Assembly (NCBI GenBank): GCA_937915245.1
Contig: CALDLU010000075.1
Span: 1 to 34,016, forward strand
Reading direction: 5' to 3'
Length of the DNA stretch: 34,016 nt
Origin: an uncultured Clostridia bacterium
GTDB lineage: Bacteria; Bacillota; Clostridia; Christensenellales; UBA1242
Shown here: piece after piece, positions 1,331 to 31,784 of the stretch
Layout: each line of letters starts with the position of its first letter
How positions within the stretch are numbered: position 1 is the first letter of the stretch
Position numbers and translations under genes: made by a program
Notes under the pieces: model-generated
Told to the model about the DNA's origin: nothing
The model's database searches: none
What the model saw: only the letters and a program-made list of their open reading frames with translations

Positions 1331-1701
1331 TTAATATCACTGCCTTCTGGGTATAAAATAAATTCTTTAGCACCATCCTCATCATAGCCAATTATTGTAT
1401 TACCATTTAATTGGATTTCATACCAATATGTTACAGGTTTATTAATTAACTCGCCAATAGTTAAATCTTCTTTATCAAAAAAAATTTCAATTTTTTTAGT
1501 TTCAACTGCAACTTCATATTCTTTTAATAACATGGCATTTTCATTCAATTTATTTGCTTCATATACACCAAATTTTACAATATCTCCAATTTGAAAAGTA
1601 TAACTTTCTAAATCAGAAGTTGGAATAGAAAAAGAAAAACTTTGGTTTTCATCTCCTCTATTTACTGATATGGTTTTATATAAATTATCTACTTTTAGCA
1701 T
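1327..1701 (-). CDS. small beta-rich tail accessory protein (BppU N-terminal-domain-like)
   Basis: The track gives 1327..1749, but the ATG at 1701 (MLKVDNLYK...) follows AAAGGTGG. There is an ATGA overlap with the next gene at 1327-1330. The domain call rests on weak pattern similarity only. Confidence 0.45.
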   Translation of the reverse strand: MLKVDNLYKTISVNRGDENQSFSFSIPTSDLESYTFQIGDIVKFGVYEANKLNENAMLLKEYEVAVETKKIEIFFDKEDLTIGELINKPVTYWYEIQLNGNTIIGYDEDGAKEFILYPEGSDIK

Positions 1702-1749
1702 AATATTCCACCTTTCTATAGTAATTATAACATAACTTTTAAATAACAC

Positions 1750-1774
1750 AAAAAAATACCAATAAATGGTATCC
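1750..1774 (-). terminator. intrinsic terminator ending the ORF-free 1750-2296 unit
   Basis: The minus strand reads GGATACCA-TTTAT-TGGTATTT followed by TTTTTG. The stem is 8 bp including two basal G-U pairs that would be A-C mismatches on the plus strand. Confidence 0.6.
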
Positions 1775-2296
1775 CTTTGATAATTAATTCAAGGAGGTTG
1801 TCAATGAATTAATAGTAAAAGTTCATATCGCAATGGCATTGAATTTCTTCAATGCGATATGAAAAATGATATGCTATTCAACACCTAGGATTATTTATCA
1901 CATATCATAGCATTGTGCTTTAGTCTTATTTCCACACGGGAGAATAAGCATACTTATTAGCACCATATTAAGCAAATCTGATGCATAAGGGTTCAAACCT
2001 TATTTATTAAACGCTCATATAATCGGCACCCGATTAACTTAATATGCTACCAGCAAGGTAGCGGTATAAATCACACCTACTTAATCGCAACGAGAAACCA
2101 TAAGTAGCAATGTGGTTTAATTATATCTGCTTTTGCTCGCTGTCTAGGGTATTAGCAGCATTCCCCACCTCTAAATTAGGACTTCGTTACTGCTACTAGC
2201 GGAACTAATGACTTCACGACTTCCATATAAACACAGGATTTTATGTGTTTGCCCAACAATTTAATAATATAAACACAACCTTGTAAATTGCATTTA
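1750..2296 (-). ncRNA. candidate large structured non-coding RNA (about 550 nt), class unknown
   Basis: No ORF of 60 aa or more on either strand between a promoter (2304-2332) and a terminator (1750-1774). There are many local hairpins: 1824-1861, 1985-2003, 2022-2034, 2046-2062, 2095-2118 and 2229-2250. G+C is visibly raised (27/60 in 2161-2220 by my count) in an otherwise very AT-rich genome. Confidence 0.45.
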
Positions 2297-2303
2297 CATA
2301 TTT

Positions 2304-2332
2304 AATATAACATAAATGATATTAAAAATCAA
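2304..2332 (-). promoter_or_regulatory. sigma-A-type promoter TTGATT-17-TATATT
   Basis: -35 at 2332-2327 and -10 at 2309-2304 on the minus strand, with a 17-nt spacer. Confidence 0.5.
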
Positions 2333-2424
2333 TAATGGAGTTCCTATATGGAATTGCACCATAATCTAGGTTTTTGCAGAACCTTGTCCTACTTTTAGAC
2401 GATAGGAACATCAAATAGAAGAAG

Positions 2425-3291: not shown

Positions 3292-3465
3292 TCACCTTTC
3301 TTTTAATAACTCGATTATTTTTTCATATTGTTCATCTTGCTTATTCAAATGATTTTCTAGTTTTTCTATTTGCTTATCATTTAAGTTTAAATTTTCAACA
3401 CCAATTATGAAAGACAATATATTTATTAAGTCTAATAAGTAATCGTTGTTATTGTCAGTATTCAT
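3292..3465 (-). CDS. 57-aa hypothetical protein (below ORF-track size cut-off)
   Basis: TAATG overlap with the upstream stop at 3465-3467. Translation: MNTDNNNDYLLDLINILSFIIGVENLNLNDKQIEKLENHLNKQDEQYEKIIELLKER. Its TGA at 3292-3294 lies inside the RBS of the next gene. Confidence 0.55.
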   Translation of the reverse strand: MNTDNNNDYLLDLINILSFIIGVENLNLNDKQIEKLENHLNKQDEQYEKIIELLKER

Positions 3466-3917
3466 TATGCTCTTTTGCTAATCCCAAGAATAGCATTAGT
3501 AATAATAGGTACTTGTGTCGCAGTAGATGTCGTACCTGTCGCACCAGCATTAACATTTGGCACAGAAGCAATAGTTAAAGTAGTATTAGCCTTGCAACAT
3601 ACTCTTATTTTCTTGTTAAAAGATAAATTAGCAAGACCACCAGCAGTTACAGTTGAGGCACTAATTGTTGATGGTATTAAAATTCCATCTTGATATAGTC
3701 CAAGAGCAACAATACCAGCAGTTCCACTAGTTGCTACTGCACTTAAATCTATCTCGTAAGTTCCTCCTTGTAATATTTTATAAAGTGGAGAACCTTGTGT
3801 ATGTTGAAGCCAACCACAACAATTTGCTGAACGACTTCTATAATCATCTAGTGGGAAAGTTACCACACTATTATTCGCAGTTAGAGCAAGTGTAGAATTA
3901 ATTACACTTTCTATCAT
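3465..3917 (-). CDS. BclA C-terminal-domain-like (C1q/TNF-type jelly-roll) protein
   Basis: 150 aa. Alternating beta-strand pattern: GGTYEIDLSAVATSGTAGIVALGLYQDG...LANLSFNKKIRV...TLTIASVPN. It resembles the globular C-terminal domain of exosporium BclA-type proteins but has no collagen-like repeats. The call is from pattern memory only. Confidence 0.4.
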   Translation of the reverse strand: MIESVINSTLALTANNSVVTFPLDDYRSRSANCCGWLQHTQGSPLYKILQGGTYEIDLSAVATSGTAGIVALGLYQDGILIPSTISASTVTAGGLANLSFNKKIRVCCKANTTLTIASVPNVNAGATGTTSTATQVPIITNAILGISKRA

Positions 3918-5036: not shown

Positions 5037-5579
5037 ATGAAAGAAATATGGAAAGATATTAAAGGATATGAGGGGTTATATCAAGCAAGTAATCTAGGTA
5101 GGATAAAAAGTATTAGCAAAATGGTTAATGGTTCAAATCAATTTGGAGTTAAATTTAAATATTTAAAGAAAGATAAAATATTAAAACCTGTAATCAATAA
5201 CCACGATTATTTGCAAGTGTCTTTGTACAAAAATAATAAGAAAGTTGAAATAAGAATACACCAACTTGTTGCTCAAACATTTTTGCCCAATCCTAATAAT
5301 TATAAGATTATTAATCATAAAGATGGAAACAAACACAACAATTGTATTGAAAATTTAGAATATTGCACTCAATCTCACAATGTTAATGAAAGTTATCGAT
5401 TAAGATTGCAAACGCCTATCACTAAACGAGTTAATCAATATGATTTAAATAACAATTTTATCAAAACATGGGATAGTATCAATGATGCTAGAAAACATTA
5501 TAATAACTCACATATATCAGATTGTTGCAATGGTCATAGAAAAACCGCCACTGGTTATATTTGGAGATATACAGATTAG
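5037..5579 (+). CDS. free-standing HNH homing endonuclease (NUMOD4 + HNH_3 + C-terminal IENR1-like HTH, I-HmuI type)
   Basis: The N-terminus WKDIKGYEGLYQASNLGRIKS is a NUMOD4 motif. INHKDGNKHNNCIENLEYCTQSHN is the HNH motif. The C-terminal part (WDSINDARKHYNNSHISDCCNGHRKTATGYIWRY) looks like a DNA-binding module. It is the only plus-strand gene inside the late region. Confidence 0.85.
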   Translation: MKEIWKDIKGYEGLYQASNLGRIKSISKMVNGSNQFGVKFKYLKKDKILKPVINNHDYLQVSLYKNNKKVEIRIHQLVAQTFLPNPNNYKIINHKDGNKHNNCIENLEYCTQSHNVNESYRLRLQTPITKRVNQYDLNNNFIKTWDSINDARKHYNNSHISDCCNGHRKTATGYIWRYTD

Positions 5580-5820: not shown

Positions 5821-6243
5821 TTACCCCTCCTTATTTGATTTTAATTTAGATTTAATTTCCTTTAATTCTTCTTTTATTTCTCTTTTAAAGGCTATTAAAT
5901 TTTCTTGTATATCATCAAGTTTATTGAAATCAAACTTTTCTTCTTTGGTTTCTTTTTGTTCTTTAGGTTCATATATTGTTATTTTACTTGTTCCATCTTG
6001 TTGCAATTGTTTTGTTACTATTGCACTACCATTAGCAATTGGAAAATAACTTATTGACCCATCTAATGGTATATCCATAGATTTTACTGTTTCTACACTG
6101 TCTACTTGTTTACCATTTAAGAATGTTCTATTTATTCCCATCTGTGGAATATTTTGCTGCTGCATAGGCATTTCCATTGGTTGTGGTATATTTGGTTGTT
6201 GTCCATAATATCTATTCATATAAGGGTTATATTGGTTATACAT
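5821..6243 (-). CDS. Tyr/Gln/Pro-rich low-complexity N-terminus plus beta domain and Lys/Glu tail (unknown function)
   Basis: The track start 6258 contains the RBS itself. The ATG at 6243 (MYNQYNPYMNRYYGQQPNIPQP...) follows GGAGGA with a 7-nt spacer. Confidence 0.6.
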   Translation of the reverse strand: MYNQYNPYMNRYYGQQPNIPQPMEMPMQQQNIPQMGINRTFLNGKQVDSVETVKSMDIPLDGSISYFPIANGSAIVTKQLQQDGTSKITIYEPKEQKETKEEKFDFNKLDDIQENLIAFKREIKEELKEIKSKLKSNKEG

Positions 6244-20792: not shown

Positions 20793-20980
20793 ATTATCAT
20801 CTCCCTTTCCTACAGTGATTTTACGGTTCACCAACCTTGAATAGAGATTTATGTATTGTCATTTGTTTACGCACAAATGTTAAAGCCTTTATTATTGGCA
20901 CAGGTTCTAGGCTATGCTCCCAGTTTTTTGGTTTTGGAGACCAATGTTTTTCTAATTAAACTAAACCCACATCTAAAGGG

Positions 20981-25980: not shown

Positions 25981-26233
25981 TATCTCTCTCTCCTTTGCAT
26001 TCAATATTATCACAAGTTTTTATCTTTTGCAATATGTATCTCGTAAAAAAATTATTGGAATTGTGGAAGGGGGTAACAAAGCCCATTTTTCACTCCTGTA
26101 ATTGGGTGGGGTGTGCCTCCAGATACACCAAAAAAGGATTTAATTATCTTCAATGTGCATAATTGATATAATTATAAACGTTAAAATTTTATAAAAAAAT
26201 AAAAATATTTATATATTACTTTACGTAAAGTGT

Positions 26234-26260
26234 AAAAAAAGATTGTAAGCCCCCTTACAA
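26234..26260 (-). terminator. intrinsic terminator facing leftward transcription out of the AT-rich region
   Basis: 7-bp stem TTGTAAG/CTTACAA with a CCCC loop (26243-26260), followed on the minus strand by TCTTTTTTT. Confidence 0.5.
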
Positions 26261-26269
26261 AAAATATGT

Positions 26270-26640
26270 ATATATCTATATAAATATATATACTAAACAT
26301 ATAACATAACAAATAAATAATAAATGTACTATATATATATATATATAGTACTACATAATTAAATATACATATTACATAATACTAATAGTATATATACTAA
26401 ATAAAACACATACTATATACACTATATATATAGTACTAATAATATATATACTATACTATGCTTTAGTATATACTAATACTAATAATTTAATACTATAATA
26501 CTAAAATATAGTATGATACTAAGATTTATCAAATAATTAGAATAAATGGGAATATATAATAATAATATGTAAATATATAGATACTAAATATCATATATAT
26601 GATAATAATTAATAATAAAATATAATAAAATACAAAAAAA
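26270..26640. repeat. AT-rich low-complexity region with about 7 degenerate ATATATA(G)TACTAA iteron-like copies
   Basis: Copies lie near 26283, 26337, 26383, 26424, 26443, 26466 and 26574. The only ORF on the track here is an implausible Ile/Tyr/Phe-rich one. Confidence 0.6.
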
Positions 26641-26643
26641 GTA

Positions 26644-26689
26644 TTGCAATTTACAATATAATGTGATACAATTATATTGTAATTGAGAG
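26644..26689 (+). promoter_or_regulatory. early promoter TTGCAA-17-TGaTACAAT overlapped by a 12-bp inverted repeat (operator candidate)
   Basis: -35 at 26644-26649 and extended -10 at 26664-26672. Inverted-repeat arms are TTACAATATAAT (26651-26662) and ATTATATTGTAA (26671-26682). Confidence 0.65.
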
Positions 26690-26703
26690 AGGATTGATAA
26701 ATA

Positions 26704-26895
26704 ATGATTTTAAAAATCAAAAGAAAAAAATTAAAGTTAAAAAGAAAGGTCAAGCAGATAATATATATACTAATATGTATTACTATACTAATTATATTAT
26801 ATTATATAGTTAATAATATAACTAATAATAATTATAATAAATGTGTAAAATATAATAGTGATGTATCATTTATCTGTGAAGATTTAAAAAAATAA
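26704..26895 (+). CDS. 63-aa small membrane protein (basic N-terminus, one TM)
   Basis: RBS GAGAGAGGA. Sequence: KRKKLKLKRKVK followed by IIYILICITILIILYYIV. Confidence 0.5.
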   Translation: MILKIKRKKLKLKRKVKQIIYILICITILIILYYIVNNITNNNYNKCVKYNSDVSFICEDLKK

Positions 26896-26909
26896 AGGAG
26901 GTGAAAAAG

Positions 26910-27056
26910 ATGATGCAATATAAAATTGATTTATATTTTGACAACAAAATAATATTTACAAATGATTTAAAAGAATATAAAAGCATATTACAAAATAATC
27001 CGTTTAAATTATACATAAAAATTAAAAATAAATATATTTTAGACGGTATTTACTAA
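26910..27056 (+). CDS. 48-aa hypothetical protein (below ORF-track cut-off)
   Basis: Strong RBS AAAGGAGGTGAAAAAG before the ATG at 26910. Translation: MMQYKIDLYFDNKIIFTNDLKEYKSILQNNPFKLYIKIKNKYILDGIY. Confidence 0.55.
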   Translation: MMQYKIDLYFDNKIIFTNDLKEYKSILQNNPFKLYIKIKNKYILDGIY

Positions 27057-27086
27057 ATTTTTAAAAAAAGGAAGGGATGAAAAAAT

Positions 27087-27272
27087 ATGAAAGATTTAGA
27101 AAAAAAGCAAAATGATGTAATTGTTTTATATGATTTATATCTAACATTATTTACAAATAAATTACTAAGTGATACTGATATAAATTATATATATAGTTTA
27201 GATAGTGATGAGTTAGATTTGTTTGTTAAATCAATTCAAAAAAAATTAGGAGGTGTTGAAAATGAAAAATAA
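27087..27272 (+). CDS. 61-aa hypothetical early protein
   Basis: Preceded by the duplicated GGAAGGGATGAAAAAAT initiation cassette. Confidence 0.55.
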   Translation: MKDLEKKQNDVIVLYDLYLTLFTNKLLSDTDINYIYSLDSDELDLFVKSIQKKLGGVENEK

Positions 27273-31148: not shown

Positions 31149-31784
31149 TTATTCTCCTTTATGTTCAGTATCAGAATATTCTATAATTTTGTTGTTTTTC
31201 ATCCTTACATATTTAGTTACTATGTTCTTATAATTAATTACAAAACCCTCAACACTTCTATTAACTTTAGAACAATACTTTTCATAGATACTATCTAAAT
31301 ATTCCTTATTAGGTAAAACTTGTAATTCAGTAACTTCTGGAACTATACCAATAAAATTTGGAATTACATTACTAATAAATGGATATATAAATAATTCATG
31401 GTCATATATTAAATTATATAATTCAAAATCATCATTAACATTTGCTTTTGCAAACATATACCATCTTTTATCAAAAGTACCAATATCATATTTAATAGCC
31501 CCCATACCTAACCATTCACCACAAATAGCAGCATTATTGTATAATTCTCTATCAAGCACTTCTTTATTATCTAAAAGCCATTGATATAACCCTTTGTATA
31601 ATATACCCTTTTGTTCTTCTATCTCCGAAACTAAAATAATATTATTTCTTTGTGCTATGTATAATTCATCAAATTTTTTAAATATAACTAAATTACTACC
31701 ATCTAATTTTTCAGTTAAATATACTTTATCTCCTAAAATACTTATTCTTTTTGTTTTAGGATACATTGATTTTTTTATCATCAT
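31149..31784 (-). CDS. stand-alone Rnl2-like RNA ligase (nucleotidyltransferase domain only)
   Basis: Candidate motifs are I TEKLDGSN, III ICGEWLG, IV VEGFVINY and V KYVRMKNNK, in the canonical order and spacing of the RNA_ligase/Rnl2 adenylyltransferase fold. Size is 211 aa. Confidence 0.6.
   Translation of the reverse strand: MMIKKSMYPKTKRISILGDKVYLTEKLDGSNLVIFKKFDELYIAQRNNIILVSEIEEQKGILYKGLYQWLLDNKEVLDRELYNNAAICGEWLGMGAIKYDIGTFDKRWYMFAKANVNDDFELYNLIYDHELFIYPFISNVIPNFIGIVPEVTELQVLPNKEYLDSIYEKYCSKVNRSVEGFVINYKNIVTKYVRMKNNKIIEYSDTEHKGE

Follow-up and report, generated by a model that had tools for sequence, protein, structure and literature searches.

A double-pseudoknot RNA in the ROOL slot and a widespread clamp cassette at a phage tRNA locus

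The 34,016-nucleotide (nt) stretch of contig CALDLU010000075.1 analysed here, referred to as the window, is an AT-rich (28% GC) fragment of a siphovirus-type gut phage genome whose proteins include an SPP1-type portal, a large terminase, a tape-measure protein and tail proteins. It raises the question of what fills a gap of 723–724 nt between two minus-strand genes of the tail region (2425–2784 and 1327–1702), which an initial annotation had read as a single structured RNA of about 550 nt recalling ROOL and GOLLD. The locus is more than one 550-nt RNA. It is composed of a missed transfer RNA (tRNA) gene, a member of a double-pseudoknot RNA family of about 200 nt that sits in the ROOL slot, and a widespread clamp cassette. 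The element is structured at the RNA level on the minus strand, is modular, belongs to no Rfam family and is exchanged with ROOL at exactly the same position. With moderate confidence, the gap can be classed with the tRNA islands of phages, as a non-coding RNA locus that represents a new family in the niche of ROOL and GOLLD. Features below lie on the minus strand unless stated otherwise.

The gap is devoid of any open reading frame (ORF) of at least 60 amino acids on either strand (1750–2424), as noted initially. Each frame of 1750–2335 contains 13–20 stops, and the longest open run is 41 codons. The sequence is the same in six of six independent assemblies, in which the phage has a coverage of 67–169×, and gene callers leave it uncalled in all of them. 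The minimum free energy (MFE) z-scores of the region are −3.7 for the minus strand and −4.75 for the plus strand, and multiple hairpins are present, as described earlier. The earlier count of 27 G or C in the 60 nt of 2161–2220 was also obtained; the core described below has a GC content of 40%, compared with 28% for the whole window.

The core is a conserved RNA of about 200 nt (2054–2259) with about seven helices and two pseudoknots. A total of 147 loci, designated by L-numbers, were collected by protein-anchored and motif-anchored scans of IMG/VR and metagenome contigs. The core occurs in 29 distinct versions in viral and metagenome contigs, found by an nhmmer profile and then by a covariance model, R1 (145–214 bits). 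In other phages it sits between tRNAs, as in L050 and L051, or ahead of the small terminase gene. Weak R1 matches in L109, and second ones in L131, L138 and L123 (17–21 bits), were inspected and found spurious. A core-motif scan of bacterial genome contigs identified no prophage host for the core; its nine matches, in unrelated non-gut genomes (Acidobacteriota, Bacteroidota, Marinobacter), were judged to be due to chance.

Helix H1 pairs AAACACA (2250–2244) with UGUGUUU (2235–2229), is 100% paired among the homologues and presents an invariant loop, UAAAAUCC. H2 is a hairpin of variable length, running from about 2224 to about 2178 and closed by GGA/UCC with an AG/AG internal loop. Its nine sequence variants (30–66 nt) are all hairpins on the same closing stem. 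H3 is built from UUUAGAGGUGGGG (2175–2163), which is invariant, and UAAUACCCUAGA (about 2154–2143). Two registers of H3 were compared and fit equally well, with double changes in neither. H5 joins CAGCGAG (2142–2136) to CUCGUUG (2094–2088), is 99.5% paired and contains three covarying pairs. H6, formed by AAACCA (2118–2113) and UGGUUU (2100–2095), varies in sequence and register among relatives and was not counted.

The two remaining helices create the pseudoknots. H4 pairs CUGC (about 2158–2155) with GCAG (about 2130–2127) and thereby links the H3 loop to the H5 loop; it is 98.6% paired, and four of its five pairs covary. H7, in which CUACUUA (2107–2101) pairs with UAAGUAG (2083–2077) and six pairs covary, connects the loop of H6 with the sequence that flanks H5 on its 3′ side.

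For counting, 41 pairs were annotated by hand on a model-fitted alignment, A6. Paired cells amount to 90.4%, compared with 39–45% when the 3′ partners are slid. Sixteen of the 41 pairs have changed on both sides, and none of 500 shuffles reaches the observed value on any of five measures. Compensatory changes thus exceed the controls in the core, as they do in the clamp. The covariation asked for at the outset is present in both elements, and in the core H4, H5 and H7 covary.

The competing partners that had been suspected are not conserved. The upstream copy of TGTGTTT (2277–2271) is found only in the closest relatives, and the pair AAACACA/TGTGTTT (2250–2244/2235–2229) is kept in 29 of 29 cores. 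Among the alternatives proposed for TAGCAG/CTGCT, covariation backs only the pairing of H4, and the site near 2191 falls in the variable tip of a hairpin. A riboswitch-like switch between alternative pairings, considered on the basis of the duplicated TGTGTTT and the three CTGC/GCAG sites, was rejected because the extra partners are not conserved.

The second element, the clamp (1949–2061), is a long helix of about 24 base pairs (bp) with a central G-G mismatch. Its 5′ strand reads CUACCUUGCUGGUA-G-CAUAUUAAGUUAAUC (2061–2032) and its 3′ strand GAUUUGCUUAAUAUG-G-UGCUAAUAAGUAUG (1978–1949), and the MFE fold has a z-score of −3.07. The base of the helix is conserved in sequence, with a 5′ consensus of UAGGUA-G-YRUA and a 3′ consensus of UAYR-G-URYCUA. 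The tips are variable and measure 38–287 nt, in modules of 77–326 nt. In the window, the apical cargo is about 53 nt long and includes a T-arm-like hairpin, AUAAGG-UUUGAAC-CCUUAU (2003–1985). Whether such cargos are cryptic tRNAs was considered and rejected: ARAGORN calls a tRNA in only 2 of 104 modules, a T-loop-like motif is found in 7, and the cargo of the window is not called.

Clamp modules are abundant elsewhere. Across 102 distinct modules, selected for at least six of eight pairs at inner positions 4–11, 95.1% of the cells at 9 outer and 16 inner positions are paired, compared with 27–48% when the strands are shifted. The central G-G mismatch is present in 99 of the 102, and several positions alternate among three pair types. 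Frequent G-U pairs, such as those at outer positions 1–2 and inner position 6 (60–77 of 102 modules), fit the tRNA strand only. Because they become A-C mismatches on the opposite strand, the clamp structure is strand-specific and belongs to the tRNA strand. The modules are single or in tandem runs of up to four, usually beside tRNAs.

In nearly every mapped locus, a clamp 5′ strand comes immediately after the core; L092 lacks one there. In the window and its closest relatives, this strand is not flagged by the strict motif scan and is seen by alignment. Two clamps enclose complete tRNAs: a tRNA-Trp with encoded CCA in L094 (6240–6371; Rfam, 61.8 bits) and a tRNA-Arg in L086 (module at minus-strand position 2665; tRNA 6022–6114). 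In these cases, the clamp constitutes a leader-trailer duplex of about 24 bp around the tRNA. The cargo of the window recurs in L098, where it follows a genuine ROOL and carries a compensatory change from GGUGC/GCAUC to GGUGU/ACAUC. Compared with the window and L021, L020 contains an insertion of about 450 nt (3325–3778) that consists of two extra clamp modules placed exactly between both ancestral clamp strands, which indicates recombination at clamps.

The connection to ROOL lies in position. The flanks of L050 are 85–98% identical to those of L098 and L078, and the three loci share one order: tRNA-Gln, then either the core (L050 1414–1608) or a ROOL of about 600 nt (L098 and L078), then the same clamps and tRNA-Leu. 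This clean swap of ROOL for a non-homologous RNA three-fold smaller is the main reason to suspect that the two serve a related purpose. In the window, a tRNA gene, tRNA-Cys, stands directly upstream.

The core itself is not a ROOL. No Rfam 15 family other than tRNAs matches the whole window at the gathering score, or 1600–2550 (951 nt) at E ≤ 10 with permissive filters. GOLLD, OLE, HEARO and raiA have no match at the gathering score or at E ≤ 10, and none in five close loci at E ≤ 1. Across about 100 related loci, Rfam reports tRNAs only, plus ROOL in L078 and L098. These two served as a positive control for the ROOL model (RF03087), scoring 169.9 and 159 bits against a gathering threshold of 99.1 bits. 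Conversely, the core model R1 has no match at E ≤ 1 in the ROOL loci. The suggested likeness to ROOL or GOLLD, or to HEARO, OLE or raiA, therefore does not extend to membership, since the search gives no match even at E ≤ 10 and the ROOL model works in related contigs; the evidence favours the alternative offered with it, a new class.

The BLAST comparison that had been recommended was made with the region, with the core and clamp, and with the island of L076, and it returned no match among GenBank phages or PLSDB plasmids. Literature searches with sequence strings of the core and clamp returned no relevant paper; fragments of these modules could be present among 10,006 candidate structured RNAs of viruses that have been catalogued (PMC10690425).

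The core and clamp are embedded in a putative transcription unit. A predicted sigma-70-type promoter (2304–2332) was located by consensus scan and conservation and comprises a −35 box, TTGATT, a 17-nt spacer and an extended −10 box, TGT-TATATT; the initial annotation had already named both hexamers. Transcription is predicted to start near 2297. In L069, L020 and L021, the two hexamers, the TG and the spacing of 17 nt are retained and only the letters of the spacer differ. Homology among the loci of these three relatives and the window begins just upstream of the promoter, at CUCCA-UUAUUGA. Promoter-like sites are not enriched in the region (9 found and 11.2 expected), and the promoter call therefore rests on conservation rather than on the scan.

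The unit opens with a lineage-specific 5′ leader (2260–2298), composed of a hairpin, UGUAAAUGCAAUUUACA (2298–2282), and the non-conserved TGTGTTT (2277–2271). The leader is restricted to the window, L069, L020 and L021, and distant homologues begin at the core. At the other end, an intrinsic terminator (1749–1779) consists of a stem that includes G-U pairs (GGGAUACCA/UGGUAUUUU) and, after it, a U-run. It was recovered by a terminator scan, in agreement with the terminator proposed earlier, and is conserved in L020 and L021; the region holds two terminator-like sites, and shuffles predict 0.6. A separate extended −10, TGTTATAAT (1732–1724), and a ribosome-binding site with ATG (1717–1700) were read from the sequence for the next gene. 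Because the terminator and these fresh signals stand between them, the RNA is not a leader of that gene.

The unit thus has consensus −35 and −10 boxes with correct spacing as well as a stem with a U-run. In L069, the promoter and RNA are present without the tRNA, which together with the conserved promoter elements supports an independent promoter-to-terminator unit. The earlier proposal of a structured minus-strand non-coding RNA locus with its own promoter and terminator is supported. The idea of one large RNA of about 550 nt stands as far as the promoter-to-terminator unit is concerned and fails as a description of a single conserved RNA. The unit is a mosaic in which only the core of about 200 nt and the clamp of about 110 nt recur in distant relatives. 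Its full length can be aligned only in the closest relatives, L020, L021 and L069, and the 5′ leader and the 3′ part of about 200 nt are confined to them.

Four hairpins occupy the space between the clamp and the terminator. A small one, CUUAUU-CUCCCGUGUGGA-AAUAAG (1925–1948), abuts the clamp 3′ strand. A hairpin with the CUCCCGUGUGGA loop directly follows the clamp 3′ strand in eight other contexts (L020, L021, L047, L052, L076, L090, L103 and L128), and this pair of hairpin and clamp is placed either before or after the core. The next three, obtained from the MFE fold, are found only in the window, L021, L069 and L020: AUGAUAUG...CAUAUCAU (1866–1908), CAUAUCGCA...UGCGAUAUG (1824–1861), and UUAAUUCA-UUGACAACCUCC-UUGAAUUAA (1784–1812), which has a loop containing CCUCC. 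The second of the three shows a compensatory change, with CGC/GCG in the window and CAC/GUG in L020. On the plus strand, 1791–1812 reads as a strong Shine-Dalgarno sequence, AAGGAGG, a 6-nt spacer and a two-codon mini-ORF, ATG-AAT-TAA, that is conserved in L020 and L021; its bases are those of the CCUCC-containing loop on the minus strand.

The tRNA gene stands upstream of the promoter. It encodes a tRNA-Cys with anticodon GCA and an encoded CCA (2336–2409), and was detected by ARAGORN and by the Rfam tRNA model (RF00005; 53.6 bits, E = 1.5e-10, threshold 29). It begins 15 nt past the stop of the upstream gene (2425–2784), and its CCA ends 4 nt ahead of the −35 box. The initial view of the gap as space for non-coding RNA accordingly holds with regard to ORFs and missed that about 75 nt of it are an ordinary tRNA gene. 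A tRNA-Cys is also found at this place in L020 and L021, which are close relatives; L069 is without it, yet keeps the downstream RNA. The tRNA-Cys of the window is identical to that of L021 (3352–3426) at 40 of 77 aligned positions and to that of L020 (2955–3031) at 48 of 82. The GCA anticodon is kept despite this strong divergence upstream of RNA units that are nearly identical in the three loci. The tRNA is probably co-transcribed with the upstream tail-region genes.

Several points weigh against the reading of the locus as one functional RNA in the ROOL niche. The transcript of the unit, its ends and its abundance are predictions. Counts for H1, the base of H2, H4 and H7 lean towards the model, to which A6 was fitted at these helices; H5 and H3 are outside it. 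The 29 cores form a few clades, and the first alignment has 55 invariant columns. H1 and H3 rest on conservation rather than covariation, because divergence among the cores is modest. Likewise, the selection of clamp modules inflates pairing, at inner positions 4–11 only. Clamps mostly occur without the core and without ROOL, so that treating core and clamp as one unit follows from their adjacency. In addition, the positional exchange with ROOL demonstrates a shared insertion slot and not a shared function. In view of these points, the confidence differs among the parts of the reading. That the locus contains a real structured non-coding RNA is very likely. That it is a new family, neither ROOL nor GOLLD, is nearly as likely. 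Functional equivalence of the core with ROOL is conceivable and somewhat doubtful.

Four other explanations bear on these parts. A position between two co-oriented genes of the tail-region operon would suit a protein-coding gene in decay, or a leader that regulates the downstream gene (1702 leftwards) in cis. This is barely credible: all frames are riddled with stops (13–20 in each), tblastn with the ORFs placed after the homologue of the upstream gene in L001 returns nothing, and substitutions keep base pairs, not codons. An intact ORF that can be aligned to 1750–2300, which the initial annotation had named as one refutation of its reading, is found in none of the 147 loci. A leader is at odds with the terminator, followed by a new promoter and ribosome-binding site, ahead of the downstream gene, and with the position of the core elsewhere, between tRNAs or before the small terminase gene and not before a homologous gene. 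A divergent member of ROOL or GOLLD, beyond the reach of Rfam models that are too narrow, would account for the genomic niche in phages beside tRNAs (PMC5737381, PMC12286853), for the slot that core and ROOL have in common in syntenic genomes, and for a short look-alike, UUAGAGG...CUAAUAC in the ROOL of L078 and UUUAGAGG...CUAAUAC in the core. Such a relationship is quite improbable given that 951 nt yield no ROOL or GOLLD match at E ≤ 10 and ROOLs of the same phage group score 159–170 bits, and that the core model finds nothing in the ROOL loci at E ≤ 1. The core is also only about 200 nt long and has two pseudoknots, and it lacks any equivalent of the GGUCGCUCC hairpin conserved in ROOL or of ROOL's long terminal helix.

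The clamps invite two explanations of their own. At the DNA level, their conserved inverted repeats would serve for recombination or mobility and move short non-coding cassettes from phage to phage. The mosaicism is indeed strong, with the cargo of the window also in L098, that of L021 in L103 and the insert of L020 in L093 and L101; the two extra modules of L020 lie exactly between clamp halves, and both sequence and pairing are conserved in the clamp stems. A repeat acting at the DNA level alone is nevertheless unlikely. Read on the opposite strand, the frequent G-U pairs would turn into A-C mismatches. The inner stems covary freely, with several positions using three pair types; the core pseudoknots covary; and clamps enclose complete tRNAs in transcribed orientation. 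No integrase or transposase stands beside the island in the loci whose genes were listed, and recombination at clamps is compatible with an RNA function. Alternatively, clamp units could be templates of a reverse-transcriptase system, like the non-coding RNA arrays of UG27 that give short complementary-DNA hairpins. Those arrays, from gut phages, consist of variable tandem hairpin units of about 135–167 nt with diverse sequence, conserved structure, and gain and loss of units (bioRxiv 10.64898/2026.09.22.753630), and the clamp modules are alike in their size of 77–326 nt, their occurrence as one to four in tandem and their variable tips. This origin is very unlikely. No reverse transcriptase or UG27 protein is encoded among about 40 ORFs of the window or the called genes of the adjoining 20 kb (L147), which together cover about 43 of the about 46 kb of the genome, and the defining motif, AUCN7UANAG, is found in 1 of 104 modules and on neither strand of window positions 1701–2424.

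The preferred reading, a new RNA family in the ROOL niche, can be put as follows. A unit of about 550 nt would be transcribed from promoter to terminator after tRNA-Cys, comprising the core, the clamp, the lineage-specific hairpins and the intrinsic terminator. The core would be fused at its 3′ end to the clamp as a stalk carrying a variable apical cargo, in the window a small junction with the T-arm-like hairpin. Together they may form a stable, highly structured, trans-acting RNA made during infection and do the same job in tRNA islands as ROOL. The invariant loops (UAAAAUCC, AGAGG and UAAUACCCUAGAC) are candidate sites for tertiary contacts or for contacts with other RNAs or with proteins. 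As a leader-trailer stalk, the clamp would stabilise or present the cargo or direct its processing, as with the enclosed tRNAs of L094 and L086.

A more far-reaching proposal is speculative and, on balance, unlikely in its entirety. It holds that core and clamp are an undescribed class of phage RNA that substitutes for ROOL as a compact answer to the same task, possibly by RNA-only self-assembly. It sees the clamps as a general cassette system, in which a sequence-conserved G-G-mismatch stalk of about 24 bp would display or process interchangeable cargos that include tRNAs; a phage RNA ligase of the PF09414 nick-sealing type might service them. Such a ligase of 211 amino acids, consisting of the adenylyltransferase domain only, is encoded in the window at 31149–31784 on the minus strand. 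Homologues with 65–74% identity are present in four distinct contigs (L052 889–1509, L076 3876–4508, L088 7968–7357 and L128 2584–2126), 0.6–0.7 kb upstream of a clamp-core-clamp island that is located there just before the small terminase gene. The ligase and the RNA island may be functionally linked.

The rest of the window provides the genomic context. Its first 12 kb have no close relative among GenBank phages by BLAST, the only match being 94 nt of an HNH gene. For the large terminase, the nearest matches reach no more than 24% identity and come from phages of Eggerthella, Fusobacterium and Terrisporobacter as well as from uncultured faecal phages. The HNH/NUMOD homing-endonuclease gene (5037–5579, plus strand) lies in opposite orientation within the tail-to-lysis region, and its 94-nt piece is 84% identical to a PinkBerry-associated phage. 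A second HNH gene is located beyond the left end of the window (L147 11615–12277). A tRNA-Trp (CCA) at 20896–20970 on the minus strand stands alone between the portal and scaffold genes, with no adjoining clamp or core. Between divergently oriented gene blocks, about 1.1 kb (26100–27250) contain short ORFs only (at most 74 amino acids) and no detected core or clamp; this is probably a regulatory or origin region.

To our knowledge, ROOL and GOLLD are among the largest bacterial and phage RNAs without a known function, and the only clues are the adjacent phage tRNA islands and the formation of cages. The replacement of ROOL in near-identical genomes by a non-homologous core three times smaller constitutes a natural swap experiment, in which features common to both, be they partners, localisation, oligomeric state or effects on tRNAs or ribosomes, are likely to be related to function. 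The clamp cassettes, with more than 100 variants and some real tRNAs as cargo, point to ways in which phages may package, stabilise or process small structured RNAs. Since neither element is matched in Rfam 15, GenBank phages or PLSDB, covariance models of the two would annotate a recurrent blank region of gut and rumen viromes.

The clamp resembles several known arrangements. Precursors of ribosomal RNA and tRNA form leader-trailer processing stalks, long helices made from the sequences that flank a structured RNA. The clamps of L094 and L086 likewise flank a complete tRNA. Unlike such stalks, clamps share a conserved sequence around the G-G mismatch in more than 100 cassettes whose cargos are unrelated, and their cleavage is hypothetical. 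Bacterial Y RNAs of the YrlA type reportedly have a conserved basal stem of their 5′ and 3′ ends and a variable, sometimes tRNA-like apical module, and several tandem copies are said to be possible. The clamp likewise combines a basal stem with a variable apical module, whereas its stem sequence and G-G mismatch are not known to correspond to the Ro-binding helix. A Y-RNA identity was rejected, with no Y-RNA match in Rfam and no Ro/TROVE domain among the scanned ORFs. The UG27 arrays are the closest published case of a phage non-coding RNA array. They are accompanied, in the locus or elsewhere in the phage, by the UG27 reverse transcriptase with bORF and sORF. They bracket a central hairpin with conserved AUCNNNNNNNUANAG and UUYA motifs, the latter too short to be informative, and have an asymmetric internal loop; clamps instead have a G-G mismatch and stems highly conserved in sequence.

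The closest parallels to the locus as a whole are GOLLD and ROOL. GOLLD is also a large structured phage RNA near tRNA islands, and its variable linker sometimes has embedded tRNAs (PMC12286853), recalling the clamps that enclose tRNAs. It differs in its size of more than 800 nt and in a conserved 3′ domain unrelated to the core. ROOL, which forms an RNA-only homo-oligomeric nanocage (PMC12286853), is like the core phage-encoded, non-coding, pseudoknotted and located beside tRNA genes (PMC5737381, PMC12286853), and the two have no detectable homology in sequence or structure in either direction. In the RNA described here, conservation is concentrated in about 200 nt with about seven helices and two pseudoknots, and the rest of the 550-nt unit is lineage-specific.

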